Origin: an uncultured bacterium
GTDB lineage: Bacteria > Bacteroidota > Bacteroidia > NS11-12g > UBA9320
Assembly (NCBI GenBank): GCA_963991985.1
Contig: CAXDRX010000006.1
Coordinates: forward strand, 7,499 to 71,498
DNA length: 64,000 nucleotides
Direction of reading: 5' to 3'
The position numbers were made by a program, and so were the translations under genes. This document shows, piece by piece, positions 28,100-35,731 of the stretch. Under the pieces are notes generated by a model. That model had not been told where the DNA came from. It made no database searches and saw nothing but the letters and a program-made list of their open reading frames with translations. Every line of letters begins with the position of its first letter. Positions within the stretch are counted from its first letter, which is position 1.

Positions 28100-29089
28100 A
28101 TGGCAAAGGTAAGTCATAGCAAAGCAACCTACTTAGAGTGGTATCGTTTGATGGTTCTGATCAGAAAATTTGAGCTCAAATCGGCGCAAATGTATGGTCA
28201 ACAAAAAATTAGAGGATTTCTGCACTTATACAGTGGTCAAGAAGCAGTCATTGCTGGCACAATGAGTGCTATCGAGAAAAGTGACAAACTAATCACAGCT
28301 TATCGAGATCACGGCCACGCTTTGGCTGTTGGCGTTTCAGCAAATGAATGTATGGCAGAGTTGTATGGCAAATCAACTGGTTGTACCAAAGGAAAAGGCG
28401 GTAGTATGCACTTTTTTGCCGCTGACAAAAATTATTTTGGTGGACATGGAATTGTGGGAGGCCAAATTCCACTTGGGGCAGGTATTGCTATGGCAGATAA
28501 ATATCAAAACAACAAATCGGTAACTTTTTGCTTCATGGGAGATGGAGCAGTAAGACAGGGTGCTTTGCATGAGACTTTCAACATGGCAATGCTTTGGAAA
28601 TTACCTGTTGTTTTTGTGATTGAAAACAATCAATACGCAATGGGGACATCTGTGGAAAGGACAACAAATGTTTTGGACTTATATAAGATTGGAAGTGCGT
28701 ATGAGATGCCTGCAGAGGCTGTGGATGGAATGGACTGTGAAGCGGTGCATGCTTCTATATCCAAGGCTGCCAAGCGTGCAAGAGAAGGAAATGGGCCTAG
28801 CTTGTTGGAAATGAAAACTTACAGATATCGTGGGCATTCGATGAGCGACCCAGGAAATTACCGAAGTAAAGATGAGTTGAAATCTTTCCAAGAAGAAGAC
28901 CCCATTGGAAAAACAAAAATGCGCATGCTCCAGAAAAAATTTGCGACAGAGAAAGAAATTACGGCCATTGAGTCCGCACAAGAAAAAATTGTTGAAGAAT
29001 CTGTACTTTTTGCAGAAAATTCTCCATTTCCAAGCGCAGACGAATTGCATAAAGATGTTTACATTGGAGACTATCCTTTCATAAAATAA
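28100..29089 (+). CDS. pdhA: Pyruvate dehydrogenase E1 component alpha subunit
   Basis: TPP-binding motif GDGA...N and strong similarity to E1-alpha (YRYRGHSMSDPG). The internal Met at 28100 is preferred, because the upstream 49 codons overlap recF antisense. Confidence 0.85.
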   Translation: MAKVSHSKATYLEWYRLMVLIRKFELKSAQMYGQQKIRGFLHLYSGQEAVIAGTMSAIEKSDKLITAYRDHGHALAVGVSANECMAELYGKSTGCTKGKGGSMHFFAADKNYFGGHGIVGGQIPLGAGIAMADKYQNNKSVTFCFMGDGAVRQGALHETFNMAMLWKLPVVFVIENNQYAMGTSVERTTNVLDLYKIGSAYEMPAEAVDGMDCEAVHASISKAAKRAREGNGPSLLEMKTYRYRGHSMSDPGNYRSKDELKSFQEEDPIGKTKMRMLQKKFATEKEITAIESAQEKIVEESVLFAENSPFPSADELHKDVYIGDYPFIK

Positions 29090-29133
29090 TCATCAAAAAA
29101 AAGATAGCCATAATTGGATCAGGTGTTGCCGGA

Positions 29134-30558
29134 ATGGCTGCTGCATGCCGTCTTCAATCTAAAGGATTTGATGTTCACGTTTTCGAGCAAGCGGAGCAGG
29201 TAGGTGGGAAATTGAATGAAATTGTTTTGGGCGATTATCGTTTTGATCGTGGTCCCAGTTTATTCACAATGCCCCATTGGATGGATCAACTCTTTTTGGA
29301 TTGCAATCAAGAGCCAAAAGACTATTTCCAATCCAAACCACTGGATATTGTATGCAAATATTTTTGGGAAGATGGTACGCAAATGGCAGTGCCTCAAGGA
29401 TCGGAAAATATTGTGAACACGCTGCATCAATCATTGGGGGAACCCAAAAAAAATATTAGAAAATATCTAAAAAAGTCTTCCTTTATATTTCATCATACAA
29501 GTCATATTTTCCTTGAGAAAAGCCTTCACAAGTTATCTACCTATCTCAACTACAAAGCATTAAAATCAATCTTGGTGCTTCCTTTTCTCGGCATTTTTAA
29601 GTCAATGAATCTTGCCCACACAATTTTTTTTGAAAAAAGAAAAGCAGTACAATATTTCAATCGCTATGCCACTTACAATGGCTCCAATCCCTACCAAGCA
29701 CCGAGCACTTTAGGCGTCATCCCTCATATCGAAAATTTTTTTGGTGCACATGCTCCCAAAGGTGGCATGTATTCTATTGCCCAAAGCATTCATAATCTCG
29801 GCAAAAAACTAGGTGTTTCTTTTCATTTGGGCAAAAAAATCACACACGTTGAAATAGTGAATAAAAAAGCGCAAAAGATTTTTTTTGAGGATACTCATTT
29901 TGATTTGGACTATTTGGTGTGTAATGGAGACATCAGTAGCATCTATCCATTATTTTCTGATTGGAATGGGAAAAAGAAAAAATTAGAGGAACCCTCAAGC
30001 TCTGCACTCATTTTTTATTGGGGCATCAATAAGGAATTCAAAAATCTGGATGTTCACAATATTTTTTTTTCAAACGATTATGAAAAAGAATTTGAATCAA
30101 TTTTCAATAATAAAATTATTGACGAAGACCCAACCATATACATTAACATATCATCGAAATACGCCATCGCAGACGCGCCTAAAGGGAAAGAAAACTGGTT
30201 TGTCATGGTCAATGCTCCCTATGACGATGAGCAAAATTGGGAAACCATAAAAATGCAAACGAAAAAGTCGGTTTTAGAAAAACTGCAAAGGGTATTGGGT
30301 GAAAATATTTCTGATCTTATTGAGCAAGAAGTTATTTGGACTCCAAAAGAAATCGAAAAACACACCTCTTCCTTTAAGGGTGCGCTTTATGGGAGCTCTT
30401 CTAATAAAAGAACTGCAGCATTTTTTAGGCATCGCAACAAAAGCAAAACCTATCAAAACATCTATTTTTGTGGAGGTAGCGTTCATCCGGGCGGAGGCAT
30501 CCCTTTGTGTCTTCAGTCTGCAAAGATTACCGCTGAACTTTTGATCAATGCCAAGTAA
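29134..30558 (+). CDS. CrtI/CrtD-family FAD-dependent carotenoid desaturase (phytoene-desaturase-like)
   Basis: The C-terminal CGGSVHPGGGIPL is the CrtI-family signature. The N-terminal Rossmann motif KKIAIIGSGVAGMAAACRL spans the first ATG, so the true start is upstream (probably ATC at 29092) with no canonical start codon. Confidence 0.7.
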   Translation: MAAACRLQSKGFDVHVFEQAEQVGGKLNEIVLGDYRFDRGPSLFTMPHWMDQLFLDCNQEPKDYFQSKPLDIVCKYFWEDGTQMAVPQGSENIVNTLHQSLGEPKKNIRKYLKKSSFIFHHTSHIFLEKSLHKLSTYLNYKALKSILVLPFLGIFKSMNLAHTIFFEKRKAVQYFNRYATYNGSNPYQAPSTLGVIPHIENFFGAHAPKGGMYSIAQSIHNLGKKLGVSFHLGKKITHVEIVNKKAQKIFFEDTHFDLDYLVCNGDISSIYPLFSDWNGKKKKLEEPSSSALIFYWGINKEFKNLDVHNIFFSNDYEKEFESIFNNKIIDEDPTIYINISSKYAIADAPKGKENWFVMVNAPYDDEQNWETIKMQTKKSVLEKLQRVLGENISDLIEQEVIWTPKEIEKHTSSFKGALYGSSSNKRTAAFFRHRNKSKTYQNIYFCGGSVHPGGGIPLCLQSAKITAELLINAK

Positions 30559-31968: not shown

Positions 31969-32436
31969 ATGGCTACCCAAGATGGTCAAATAGCTTATGA
32001 TAAGTTAGATTATCCAAAGTTTCCATCCAAACAAATTGCCGTTGTTTGCACAGAGTGGAATAGTGAAATTACCGATAAATTATTGGCAGGAGCTATAGAG
32101 GCTCTTAAAAAAGCTGAGGTGGAGCGTATCATCTCCATAAAAGTGCCAGGAGCATATGAGATTCCTTATGCTTGCCAAAAATTAGTCCAAAAAAGTGACG
32201 TTGATGGCATCGTGACTTTAGGTGCGATTATTCAAGGAGAAACAAAACATTTTGACTTTATTTCACAGGCGGTTTCTCAAGGTGTCATGGATGTTTCGCT
32301 TAAGTACAGCAAGCCAATAACTTTTGGCATCATTACGCCCAACAACATAGAACAAGCCGAGGATAGGGCTGGTGGAAAATTGGGGAACAAAGGTTTTGAA
32401 GCCGCTTTGTCTTTGTTGAAGATTTTAGATCTTTAA
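31969..32436 (+). CDS. ribH: 6,7-dimethyl-8-ribityllumazine synthase
   Basis: 155 aa with conserved lumazine synthase blocks (VVCTEWNSEITDKLL, GAYEIPYA, GAIIQGETKHFDF). Confidence 0.9.
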   Translation: MATQDGQIAYDKLDYPKFPSKQIAVVCTEWNSEITDKLLAGAIEALKKAEVERIISIKVPGAYEIPYACQKLVQKSDVDGIVTLGAIIQGETKHFDFISQAVSQGVMDVSLKYSKPITFGIITPNNIEQAEDRAGGKLGNKGFEAALSLLKILDL

Positions 32437-33234
32437 AAAATCTTTACTGGGCATCCAAATTATATTGGGATCACGTTTGAACCAGGTCAGTTGCCTTTTG
32501 GCGTAATTTCGTGTATGTTGTTTTATTTTCTCAACGGCGTCCTCTAGTGCGATTTCCCCATTTAAAAAGTCAAAAAGTTCTTTGTAGCCAACGGTTTGTA
32601 ATGCATTATTTTTCTGAAAGGGCAAAAGACGTTTTGCTTCTTCCAGCATACCCTCTATCATCATTTGGTCAACCCGCTTATTTATCCGATCATACAAAGT
32701 ATATCTTTCCCAATGGATTGCCCATTTCTCTATTTTAAAATCGGTGCTTATACTCGGCAAAGATTTCCCTCGCTCGGAAACACTTTCAATTTCAATTGCG
32801 CGAATAAGTCTATGCGGATTGTTCACGTCAATTTGGTTGAATTTCATAGGGTTTCTTTTTTTTAGTTCATTCCTTAAATATTCCATTCCATATTCATCCA
32901 ATTTTTTTTGCAATTGCCCCCTCAGTTTTAAATTTTTCGGTGGCAAATGGTCTAAACCTTCTAAGGCAACTTGTAAATATAAACCGGAACCACCAACCAA
33001 AACTATGGAATGGTATTTTTTGAAGAGTTCATTGATTTTTTGTCGGCAGGCATAGGCAAATTGGTACACATCAAAATCATCAAAAATTGAAAGATTGTTA
33101 ATGAAATGATGCGGAACTTCCTTCAATTCGGTTTGGCTTGGTTTTGCGACAGCAACGCCCAACTCCTTATAAAACTGTCTGGAATCAAAACTTATAATCT
33201 CACACCGATGCTTTTTGGCCATGTGTATGGCCAA
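32425..33234 (-). CDS. miaA: tRNA dimethylallyltransferase
   Basis: MiaA motifs EIISFDSRQFYKEL and VLVGGSGLYL. The P-loop (GATASGKT) lies upstream of the first ATG/GTG/TTG (the TTG at 33234). The real start is probably the ATC near 33276, overlapping the upstream gene stop. Confidence 0.8.
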   Translation of the reverse strand: MAIHMAKKHRCEIISFDSRQFYKELGVAVAKPSQTELKEVPHHFINNLSIFDDFDVYQFAYACRQKINELFKKYHSIVLVGGSGLYLQVALEGLDHLPPKNLKLRGQLQKKLDEYGMEYLRNELKKRNPMKFNQIDVNNPHRLIRAIEIESVSERGKSLPSISTDFKIEKWAIHWERYTLYDRINKRVDQMMIEGMLEEAKRLLPFQKNNALQTVGYKELFDFLNGEIALEDAVEKIKQHTRNYAKRQLTWFKRDPNIIWMPSKDFLKI

Positions 33235-33277
33235 TTTTGTTTTTCCACTTGCTGTAGCACCTACTACCGCTATTATT

Positions 33278-33811
33278 TTATTGATTGGGTTCAGTATTGT
33301 CTGGCGGAATGATAAATTCGTCTCTGGAGAGATCTTCCATTTTGGCTTTTTGAATCAAGTCTTTTGCCATCGTGTCGAACTCATTGCTTTTTAAACCTAG
33401 CTCAAACTTATTCTTTTTGACAAATTGAGGAGGTGCATCCATTTCAGATTTCTGCAACTTTGGATACGACATGGTTTGATCCGATTTAAAAATCTTGATG
33501 AGCTCTATTCTCAAAGCCCATTCTTCGTCCCCGTTGGTAAGGTAGCGAAGCTGCTGATGGGGTGAAACAACCAAATCTCGAACCATCACATTGTCAAAAT
33601 TCTTTTTTTTCTCTCGGTTGTTGGTAATTTTACTTTTGCTTCTCCAGCTGTCGTCTACGATTTCAAAAGCGGAAGATGTTGAGGCATTGAATTTTATTGC
33701 TTTTTGAATGGCTTCATGAAATCGATTGACTGTTTGAGAGGCCAAAACATCAATCACCCGTACAATTTCATCGTAATCTTCAAATTTTATTCTGAACCTA
33801 AATGCAATCAT
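33278..33811 (-). CDS. pRiA4b ORF-3-like / IS1096-passenger-TnpR-like family protein (function unknown)
   Basis: The N-terminal block FRFRIKFEDYDEIVRVIDVLASQTVNRFHEAIQKAIKF...AFEI resembles the PRiA4_ORF3 domain pattern. 177 aa. Confidence 0.4.
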   Translation of the reverse strand: MIAFRFRIKFEDYDEIVRVIDVLASQTVNRFHEAIQKAIKFNASTSSAFEIVDDSWRSKSKITNNREKKKNFDNVMVRDLVVSPHQQLRYLTNGDEEWALRIELIKIFKSDQTMSYPKLQKSEMDAPPQFVKKNKFELGLKSNEFDTMAKDLIQKAKMEDLSRDEFIIPPDNTEPNQ

Positions 33812-33812
33812 T

Positions 33813-35216
33813 TTATTTTAATTTTCTTAATCCCAAAACCAATCCTTTGGCAACAACAAAGTTATAAGCTTCTTGATAATCATTTTTTATCACACCTTCT
33901 AAAATAGCTTCCCGTAAGGCTGTTTTAAGCGTCCCTACTTCTTTTCCTTGCTTTAAACCAAAAATTTCCATGATTTCAAAACCATCTATTGGAGGCTGGA
34001 AATTGCGGATTTTGTCCCTATCTTCCACAGCGACAATTTTTTGCTCAACTTGAGCCAAATTATTTTTAAATTTATTTTGTTTAAAAACGTTTTTTGTAGT
34101 GATATCGCACTTGCATAAAATCATTAAGTCCTCTAAATCTTCTCCTGCGTCAAAAATTAATCTTCTTATGGCGGAGTCGGTAACAATTTCTTTCACCAAG
34201 GCGATTGGTCTTAGGTGAAGCCTTACCAGTTTTTCAACTTTTCTCATAGATTCATTCAATGGCAGTTTCAGACGCTTAAAAATCTTCTTTACCATCCTGG
34301 CGCCAAGATCTTCATGACCATGAAATGTCCATCCTTCCTTTTGATCATACCTTTTGGTGGGTGGCTTTGCGATGTCATGTAGTATGGCCGCCCACCTTAA
34401 CCAAAGGTCATCACTTTTTTCTGCGACATTGTCTAAGACTTCTAGGGTATGGTAAAAGTTGTCTTTGTGAGATTTTCCATTTCTTTTTTCAACGCCTTGT
34501 AGAGCAACCATTTCAGGGAAAAATTGGTGCAACAGCTGGGTGTCAAACAACAGCTTAAACCCTTGGCTTGGGCGAGGAGCAAGAATAATTTTGTTCAATT
34601 CATCCATAATTCTTTCAACACTCACAATTTTTAACCGGTGTGCCATGGTGCTGATTGCATTTAAAGTATTTGTTTCAATAACGAATTGAAGTTGGGTGGC
34701 AAAACGAATCGCACGCATCATCCGCAAAGGATCGTCATCGAATGTTTTTTTGGGGTTGAGCGGGGTTTGAATAATTTTCTGCTTTAGGTCATTGACTCCC
34801 CCAAATGGATCAACGATTGTAGTTGAACCATTTAGACTAATGGCGAGTGTATTGATGGTAAAATCTCTTCTATGTTGATCTTCTTCAAGACTTCCTTCTT
34901 CAATCTTAGGTTTGCGAGAGTCTCGATTGTAGCTTTCTTTTCTTGCTCCTATAAACTCTAGCTCAAAATCTTTATACTTAACTTGGGCAGTACCAAAATT
35001 TTTAAACACAGTCAATGAGGCATTTTTCCCCAAAATACTTTTTAGCGAACTAGCCACTTCAATACCGCTTCCGATGCATACAAAATCTATGTCTTTGGAA
35101 TTTCTTCCCAACAATTGATCTCTAACAAAGCCCCCTACAACAAAAGTTTCAATGGCTTCCTTTTGGGCGGCTTTACGAACCCAGTCAAACACCTCATTTT
35201 CTAATGCGATTTGCAT
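33813..35216 (-). CDS. CCA tRNA nucleotidyltransferase (PolyA_pol head + HD domain)
   Basis: VVGGFVRDQLLGRNSKDIDFV nucleotidyltransferase motif and an HD domain (ILHDIAKP). The start is taken at the internal Met (MQIALEN). Confidence 0.85.
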   Translation of the reverse strand: MQIALENEVFDWVRKAAQKEAIETFVVGGFVRDQLLGRNSKDIDFVCIGSGIEVASSLKSILGKNASLTVFKNFGTAQVKYKDFELEFIGARKESYNRDSRKPKIEEGSLEEDQHRRDFTINTLAISLNGSTTIVDPFGGVNDLKQKIIQTPLNPKKTFDDDPLRMMRAIRFATQLQFVIETNTLNAISTMAHRLKIVSVERIMDELNKIILAPRPSQGFKLLFDTQLLHQFFPEMVALQGVEKRNGKSHKDNFYHTLEVLDNVAEKSDDLWLRWAAILHDIAKPPTKRYDQKEGWTFHGHEDLGARMVKKIFKRLKLPLNESMRKVEKLVRLHLRPIALVKEIVTDSAIRRLIFDAGEDLEDLMILCKCDITTKNVFKQNKFKNNLAQVEQKIVAVEDRDKIRNFQPPIDGFEIMEIFGLKQGKEVGTLKTALREAILEGVIKNDYQEAYNFVVAKGLVLGLRKLK

Positions 35217-35254: not shown

Positions 35255-35731
35255 ATGAAAAAACTTTTGGTACTTCGACATGCCAAGTCAAGTTGGGCAA
35301 ATGTGCAAGAATCTGATTTAGAAAGAGGCTTAAACGCTAGAGGTGTCAAAGACCTTATGAAAATGGCAAAAAGACTTAGGAATTATGACTGCCAGCCCGA
35401 AATCTGTTTGTCAAGTCCTGCATTGCGCACAAAACTAACTGCACTTGCTGTCTTAGATATTTTCGAAAATCCAATAAAAATAATTGAGACGAACGAACTT
35501 TATTTAGCCAATATTCAATCCCTAAAGAAAGAAATTTCCCATTCATTCAAACAATATAATTTCATAATGCTTGTCGGTCATAACCCAGGACTTACAAATA
35601 TGTTCAACCAATGCTGCAAAAATCGATTGGACAACCTACCCACGCTGGGATGCTACCTATTACAATTTGAAAACTGGCCCTCCTGGAAAGCCAAATTGCT
35701 TTTTATCGATTACCCCAAAAAATTTCGCTAA
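35255..35731 (+). CDS. Histidine-phosphatase-family protein (SixA-like)
   Basis: LVLRHAKS catalytic RHG-type motif. About 158 aa. Confidence 0.7.
   Translation: MKKLLVLRHAKSSWANVQESDLERGLNARGVKDLMKMAKRLRNYDCQPEICLSSPALRTKLTALAVLDIFENPIKIIETNELYLANIQSLKKEISHSFKQYNFIMLVGHNPGLTNMFNQCCKNRLDNLPTLGCYLLQFENWPSWKAKLLFIDYPKKFR

Follow-up and report, generated by a model that had tools for sequence, protein, structure and literature searches.

Introduction

Translation starts at the near-cognate codons AUA, AUC or AUU (hereafter AUH) are known from Escherichia coli, in which infC, encoding initiation factor 3 (IF3), and pcnB are the only confirmed genes with a non-canonical start, AUU in both cases, and in which AUA, AUC and AUU initiate at about 0.02–3% of the level of AUG, with methionine at the N-terminus (10.1101/063800). 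Here we describe miaA, the gene of a tRNA dimethylallyltransferase, in a stretch of 64,000 nucleotides (nt) from an uncultured member of the Bacteroidota (contig CAXDRX010000006.1), which we refer to as the window. Judged by its sequence, this miaA must start at an AUH codon right beside the stop codon of the gene upstream, which has the same direction and encodes a PRiA4_ORF3-like protein (PRiA4 in short). With infC and pcnB it would have in common that a housekeeping gene is read from a near-cognate AUH start with the initiator tRNA, at low expression and with a potential sensitivity to IF3. However, the AUU of both E. coli genes is accompanied by a Shine-Dalgarno sequence, and infC is subject to autoregulation, whereas for miaA we predict AUA or AUC, in a phylum that does not rely on Shine-Dalgarno sequences, and the start abuts a stop codon.

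The latter feature resembles termination-reinitiation, which has been described for co-directional genes with a restart −8 to +2 nt from the upstream stop, at spacings of −4, −1, −8 and small positive values (Huber et al., 2019, 2023; reviewed in PMC12548453), and which is efficient only over approximately −8 to +10 nt (PMC10666635). At the miaA junction, the sequence ATCAATAA corresponds to the −8 motif, and TAA-A-ATA matches the +1 spacing that is used with ATG elsewhere in the operon. In contrast, the restart codons of the described cases are ATG, GTG or TTG, and non-canonical codons have come up only as one way in which odd overlaps might be explained. Programmed +1 frameshifting of the prfB type is similar in that the downstream gene lies in a +1 frame that continues open past the upstream stop, but the miaA junction has neither a conserved slippery codon nor a stimulatory element, and the two genes are separate in outgroups. 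Compared to the MiaA family itself (TIGR00174; 2QGN, 3D3Q, 2ZM5/3FOZ), the window gene shows a full-length match, the P-loop and the DSRQ motif, and it differs only in its start codon; every other member examined starts canonically at least eight codons before the P-loop.

A miaA gene without a canonical start codon

The miaA frame is open from position 33354, directly after an in-frame TGA, and reads FKKPKWKISPETNLSFRQTILNPINKIIAVVGATASGKTKLAIHMAKK... (coordinates of all features are given in Table 1). Between this TGA and the TTG at 33234 no ATG, GTG or TTG is found in frame, so that the TTG is codon 41 of the open stretch, after 40 start-less codons; the first in-frame ATG follows at 33222–33220. 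Since the TTG is the first canonical codon, the P-loop GATASGKT, which lies within the peptide ...PINKIIAVVGATASGKTKLAIHMAKK, is located upstream of every canonical start. Among the approximately 60 long open reading frames (ORFs) of the window this start-less stretch is the longest, followed by the one of crtD with 27 codons. A preliminary description, made from the sequence alone, had reported a miaA without canonical start and with its P-loop upstream of any ATG, GTG or TTG, and both sequence and translation confirm this. It had also identified the TTG correctly as the first canonical codon, although it gave the open stretch before it as about 30 codons instead of 40. Its N-terminal peptide and its placement of an ATC 5 nt ahead of the upstream TAA were found to be right.

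If translated from this ATC, the product matches TIGR00174, the miaA equivalog, with 241.2 bits (cut-off 148.65), and model positions 1–287 of 288 align to residues 4–282. Because the alignment covers the full length of the model, the segment upstream of the TTG belongs to the core of the family. The Pfam match is IPPT, and the closest solved relative is MiaA of Bacillus halodurans (2QGN, E 1e-53), to which the ATC-started product aligns from its own residue 3 onwards. Both the hydrophobic strand with the P-loop (IIAVVGATASGKT) and the DSxQ motif (FDSRQFY) are present and invariant across the three lineages compared below. By sequence, the gene is thus a MiaA, a tRNA (adenosine37-N6)-dimethylallyltransferase, and is predicted to form N6-isopentenyladenosine at position 37 (i6A37).

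Conservation of the start-less junction

A protein search revealed only three close miaA clusters (99%, 94% and 62–63% identity), every one of which had been shortened by gene callers. We compared the contigs of these relatives with the window, while outgroups were obtained from genome and metagenome scans. Within the syntenic region the same start-less and indel-free junction was found in 17 independent assemblies, nine from the window lineage (comprising the 99% and 94% identity groups) and eight from its sister, the MED-G17 lineage (62–63%). These assemblies stem from different samples and assemblers and comprise ENA, Logan, JGI and Tara data as well as metagenome-assembled genomes (MAGs) in GenBank, such as Bacteroidetes bacterium MED-G17. 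All of them have the gene order cca–PRiA4_ORF3–miaA in common, with ribH convergent on miaA. Outgroups behave differently: 157 out of 157 miaA loci that could be judged possess an ATG, GTG or TTG 8–22 codons before the P-loop glycine, and compared to these a canonical start ahead of the P-loop strand is missing only in the window and MED-G17 lineages.

Codons −5 to +12 from the P-loop glycine differ between the window and MED-G17 by six synonymous changes and one non-synonymous change, which corresponds to a ratio of non-synonymous to synonymous differences per site (pN/pS) of 0.06. The remainder of the gene gave 0.30 in the same comparison, with synonymous sites near saturation, and 0.105 between the 99% and the 94% lineage. 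Given such strong purifying selection, the start-less segment is most likely translated. In the 94% lineage, the TTG has become TTT and the strand preceding the P-loop carries a synonymous GCG to GCT change. The absence of a canonical miaA start is therefore real and maintained, as the assemblies agree and the segment is under purifying selection. Thus miaA appears to be functional and to have stayed intact since before the split of the two lineages, though the canonical start is missing in both.

Relatives with 94–99% identity were found only in metagenome assemblies and in one GenBank MAG fragment (MEC8739007.1). Scanning the GTDB species representatives did not recover the window's own species, but only a 63%-identical MED-G17 MAG. 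A scan of genome collections with window-specific peptides retrieved no relative, while an alignment-based scan succeeded. The metagenome scan delivered one extra MED-G17-type contig and no intermediate lineage; therefore, more taxa could not decide between the two candidate start codons that are considered next.

ATC or ATA

Counted in codons from the P-loop glycine, the candidates in the window are an ATC at −8 (33285) and a pair of ATA codons at −5 and −4 (33276 and 33273). The ATC precedes the TAA of the PRiA4_ORF3-like gene and both ATAs follow it, which places them at −8, +1 and +4 nt relative to this stop, and the sister lineage has AUH codons within −8 to +10 nt as well. Based on the sequence comparison, we consider ATC 33285 and ATA 33276 about equally likely to be the start of miaA. 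Their products would be (M)NKIIAVVGATASGKT and (M)IAVVGATASGKT, respectively, and the ATA-started gene would be 9 nt shorter.

In favor of ATC, its product (M)NKIIAVVG... has the minimal N-terminal length found among outgroups, several of which are forced to start at −8 (e.g. VNKLISISGPTAVGKT). Furthermore, it creates the classic −8 stop-start overlap (PMC10666635, PMC12548453), the Asn-Lys at −7 and −6 is retained despite a synonymous AAA/AAG difference, and the conserved crtD start in the same genomes is an ATC, too. The tryptic peptide expected for an ATC-started MiaA is IIAVVGATASGK. This ATC is conserved in the nine assemblies of the window lineage, whereas MED-G17 has GCG at the same position. 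The ATA ATA pair, in contrast, is identical in 17 of 17 assemblies from both lineages. In addition, ATA 33276 begins one base after the TAA and has an A at −3, which is favorable in Bacteroidia that initiate without Shine-Dalgarno sequences (Baez et al., PMC6847099). Its surroundings, AATAAAATAAT, mirror the canonical cca/PRiA4 junction 530 nt upstream, AATAAAATGAT, with TAA-A-ATA instead of TAA-A-ATG. The candidates of the MED-G17 lineage are an ATT at −10, the ATA ATA at −5/−4 and a GTG at −1, but a start at this GTG would remove the strand preceding the P-loop, which is conserved across the lineages.

The proposal of the preliminary description, an ATC start coupled to the upstream gene, has to be divided: an AUH start at the stop stands, whereas ATC as the particular codon is one of two roughly equal candidates, with GCG in its place in the sister lineage.

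Termination-reinitiation as the probable mechanism, and its alternatives

We regard a restart at the AUH codon after termination of the upstream gene as the best and a rather probable reading of the junction, with translational coupling being predicted from sequence features. The ancestral canonical start of miaA would have been lost in the common ancestor of the two marine Bacteroidota lineages, and the gene would since be translated from the near-cognate codon beside the TAA of the presumably co-transcribed PRiA4_ORF3-like gene. Ribosomes finishing PRiA4 would stay on the mRNA and restart with the initiator tRNA a few bases away. Such coupling might compensate for the weak codon and yield the low amount of enzyme that is needed.

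This reading is best supported because the operon is packed, the stop is fixed, near-cognate initiation is weak and the range of reinitiation is short; the A-rich junction, predicted to be unpaired, and the second case in crtD fit it as well. In the cca–PRiA4–miaA string there is no intergenic space: a single base separates the TAA of cca from the ATG of PRiA4. Of 36 junctions between co-directional genes in the window, approximately 20 show the next start −11 to +9 nt away from the preceding stop. Spacings of +1, +2, −4 and −8 occur with canonical codons, and ATGA, TAA-N-ATG and −8 overlaps are all common. Such tight packing fits a streamlined marine genome with 37% GC. In both lineages, exactly 16 nt separate the stop of PRiA4 from the glycine codon of the P-loop; while the last eight residues ahead of it have diverged (PPDNTEPNQ versus PKDSPDSSE), its position is unchanged. 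In seven outgroup loci with PRiA4_ORF3 upstream of miaA (L051, L071, L073, L105, L123, L126 and L074), miaA starts right after or close to the stop as well, with GTG or ATG (e.g. TAA GTG AAT AAA).

Several points weigh against this reading. Starting at ATA would give a MiaA whose N-terminus is three residues shorter than in any of the 157 outgroups, and ATC is missing from the sister lineage. The conservation of ATA ATA may reflect ordinary coding constraint, since Ile-Ile codons are ancestral in outgroups. Adjacency to the stop is weak evidence because, at 37% GC, chance alone should place in-frame ATH (Ile) codons close to stops. Finally, we infer both the N-terminus of MiaA and the coupling, and an internal promoter within the PRiA4 gene, combined with independent initiation, is conceivable.

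The latter scenario, in which the AUH codon is used by free 30S subunits without any dependence on upstream translation, perhaps with an mRNA that originates from a promoter within PRiA4, is the strongest competitor, yet we consider it rather unlikely. The junction is A-rich and predicted to be unpaired, with no significant RNA structure (z −1.07), and this is what Bacteroidia, which start without Shine-Dalgarno sequences (PMC6847099), use as a substitute. An A is also present at −3 of the ATA, and near-cognate codons measurably initiate without coupling in E. coli (10.1101/063800). Against it stand the stop position, which is base-exact in both lineages despite the divergent PRiA4 tail, and the start of crtD, which also sits 1–2 nt from an upstream stop. 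Sigma-70-type promoter-like matches (5) did not exceed the shuffled expectation (7.6), although the promoter type of Bacteroidetes may differ.

That miaA is truncated or decaying, with a start at the TTG or ATG past the P-loop or with none at all and a non-functional product, is highly improbable. Callers limited to ATG, GTG and TTG do deliver products of 265 and 279 amino acids (aa), and the preliminary description had named a MiaA that naturally begins at the TTG without P-loop as the finding that would overturn its claim. This is contradicted by the TTT that replaces the TTG in the 94% lineage and by the low pN/pS of the upstream P-loop segment. Moreover, the gene is intact and of full length compared to TIGR00174, its pN/pS as a whole is 0.1–0.3 across near-saturated synonymous divergence, and the start-less state is older than the split of the lineages and has not been followed by further decay.

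Slightly less probable still is a programmed +1 frameshift near the end of PRiA4 that would generate a PRiA4-MiaA fusion, so that miaA would need no start of its own. In both lineages, the miaA frame is indeed +1 to PRiA4 and stays open through the 26 codons ahead of the junction, and CCC-A, which is known to be prone to +1 shifts, occurs in the window 9 nt ahead of the stop. However, the sister lineage reads CCT GAT TCA there and the slippery site is thus unconserved, as are the miaA-frame residues upstream of −7 (2 of 9 identical). Where the DNA is conserved, a +1 frame that stays open for 26 codons is nothing unusual. Furthermore, outgroups place the two genes in any frame relative to each other, separated by a stop and an own start, and a PF07929 domain fused to IPPT was found in 0 of the best 120 MiaA relatives. 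Both this fusion and a sequencing error had been listed as alternatives in the preliminary description, and neither holds. An assembly or sequencing error, i.e. an indel or a miscalled base that hides a canonical start, is excluded because 17 independent assemblies share an identical junction without indel or length variation. Transcriptional slippage at the PRiA4/miaA junction was rejected as well, since the run comprises only four consecutive A's and the sister lineage reads TAAGAT.

A second case in crtD

The same start anomaly was found in crtD, encoding 1-hydroxycarotenoid 3,4-desaturase, downstream of the co-directional pdhA. Against NF042421 the stop-to-stop ORF scored 567 bits, with profile positions 2–485 on residues 16–499. 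Its first canonical codon, ATG 29134, is located inside the FAD-binding GxGxxG motif (KKKIAIIGSGVAGM). At the junction the frame reads AAA ATA ATC ATC AAA AAA AAG ATA GCC ATA ATT GGA. The window, the 94% lineage and MED-G17 share the ATC at 29092–29094, eight codons before the first glycine of GxGxxG. In MED-G17, the crtD frame is closed by a TAA three codons upstream, the ATC lies one base past the pdhA stop, and besides an Ile-Ile pair directly before the glycine it is the sole near-cognate codon. Thus, ATC almost certainly functions as the crtD start in this lineage, again 1–2 nt past an upstream stop.

Approximately 66 further genes, in the window and in 10 kb past its left edge, were screened by eye and with NCBIfam (RuvC, a short-chain dehydrogenase (SDR), uracil-DNA glycosylase, RecF, RecN, MurI and others). 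No hidden non-canonical start was detected among them, and their canonical starts are plausible. The flank was extended leftward only (L175). A geranylgeranyl-reductase gene in this flank was considered as a third case and rejected, as an in-frame TTG gives MKKTDVVVVGAGPAG. Look-ups of the protein P0135 and of two proteins encoded close to the right-hand window edge gave no record.

Existing annotation and significance

The miaA case is a new conserved example of a rare but known phenomenon and is already implicit in GenBank annotation. In relatives, records of the NCBI Prokaryotic Genome Annotation Pipeline (PGAP) start miaA at ATA −13 (PDH53043.1, MVLIQANK...), at ATA −24 (OUU02405.1, MFHQTN...) and at ATA −4, the second ATA of the pair (MEC8739007.1, MAVVGATASGKT), while crtD begins at ATC in PDH53047.1 and OUU02409.1 (MKNKVAIIGSG) and at an ATA overlapping the stop in MEC8739011.1 (MIIKKKIAIIGSG). 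These non-canonical starts rest on homology and are inconsistent, with three different ATAs for miaA and ATC or ATA for crtD depending on the lineage. None of the PGAP miaA records chose the equivalent of ATC 33285. We found no paper that describes the miaA case, and the only one that mentions MED-G17 is unrelated.

Gene callers start the 99% and 94% clusters at MAKK (265 aa) and the 62% cluster at a GTG, which gives MGATASGKT (279 aa). Accordingly shortened entries were observed in public catalogues (P0001–P0003 and P0121–P0164), where MiaA comprises 265 aa without P-loop or 279 aa without the preceding strand. CrtD has 474 or 429 aa in these catalogues and lacks the FAD motif. The practical effect is that most public protein catalogues hold shortened versions of both proteins.

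To our knowledge, bacteria very rarely start genes naturally at AUA or AUC, and hardly any such case has been validated. In miaA and crtD, putative starts of this kind have been kept between lineages with approximately 38% of residues differing, both at stop-start junctions. One might speculate that the lineage formed by the window organism and MED-G17/TMED39 follows a relaxed or reinitiation-specific start rule with AUA and AUC as routine restart codons. We consider this idea unlikely. It is based on the observation that two of approximately 68 genes (miaA and crtD) lost their canonical starts and kept AUH over a long divergence. The rate of non-canonical starts in well-annotated bacteria is about 1 in 1,000 or less, and two in approximately 68 is far above it. 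If true, near-cognate codons would be accepted after termination by ribosomes that work without Shine-Dalgarno sequences, and catalogues from callers limited to ATG, GTG and TTG would systematically truncate such proteins. The junction may serve as a compact natural test case for whether start-codon stringency is relaxed in reinitiating ribosomes.

Features and gene neighborhood

Table 1. Positions in the window of the features discussed in the text.
Feature	Position	Strand	Remarks
miaA coding region	32425..33285	-	from candidate ATC; 286 codons plus TAA stop (32427-32425)
TTG, first canonical in-frame codon of miaA	33232..33234	-	3' of the P-loop; implausible as start; TTT in the 94% lineage
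P-loop (Walker A) GATASGKT	33238..33261	-	invariant in the lineages except for synonymous changes
Candidate starts ATA ATA	33271..33276	-	codons −5 and −4; first begins 1 base past the upstream TAA; A at −3
TAA stop of PRiA4_ORF3-like gene	33278..33280	-	proposed termination site for the ribosome restart
Candidate start ATC	33283..33285	-	codon −8 relative to the glycine of the P-loop; forms ATCAATAA, an 8-nt stop-start overlap
In-frame TGA closing the miaA frame upstream	33355..33357	-	read from sequence
PRiA4_ORF3-like gene, 177 aa	33278..33811	-	Pfam PF07929, E 6e-14; overlaps or abuts the putative miaA start
CCA-adding/poly(A) polymerase-family gene (cca)	33813..35216	-	PolyA_pol and HD domains; first of the cca-PRiA4-miaA string
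crtD (1-hydroxycarotenoid 3,4-desaturase)	29092..30558	+	same start anomaly; stop-to-stop ORF 29053-30558
pdhA TAA stop	29087..29089	+	2 nt before the crtD ATC; overlapped by an ATA (ATAA) and by another ATC (TAATC)

For cca we took the ATG of the 467-aa calls in relatives as the start, while a TTG further upstream, at 35300, would be an alternative. The tRNA scan of the window detected a tRNA-Arg only and nothing that bears on initiation. Several outgroups among distant Flavobacteriales and Bacteroidia also carry a PRiA4_ORF3-like gene directly upstream of miaA. Being encoded between two tRNA enzymes, the PRiA4_ORF3-like protein may itself be tRNA-related. At the other end of miaA, ribH, encoding 6,7-dimethyl-8-ribityllumazine synthase, converges on it, and the 3' ends of both genes overlap by 12 nt (32425–32436). 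This overlap is present in relatives as well, among the called genes of L001 and L003.

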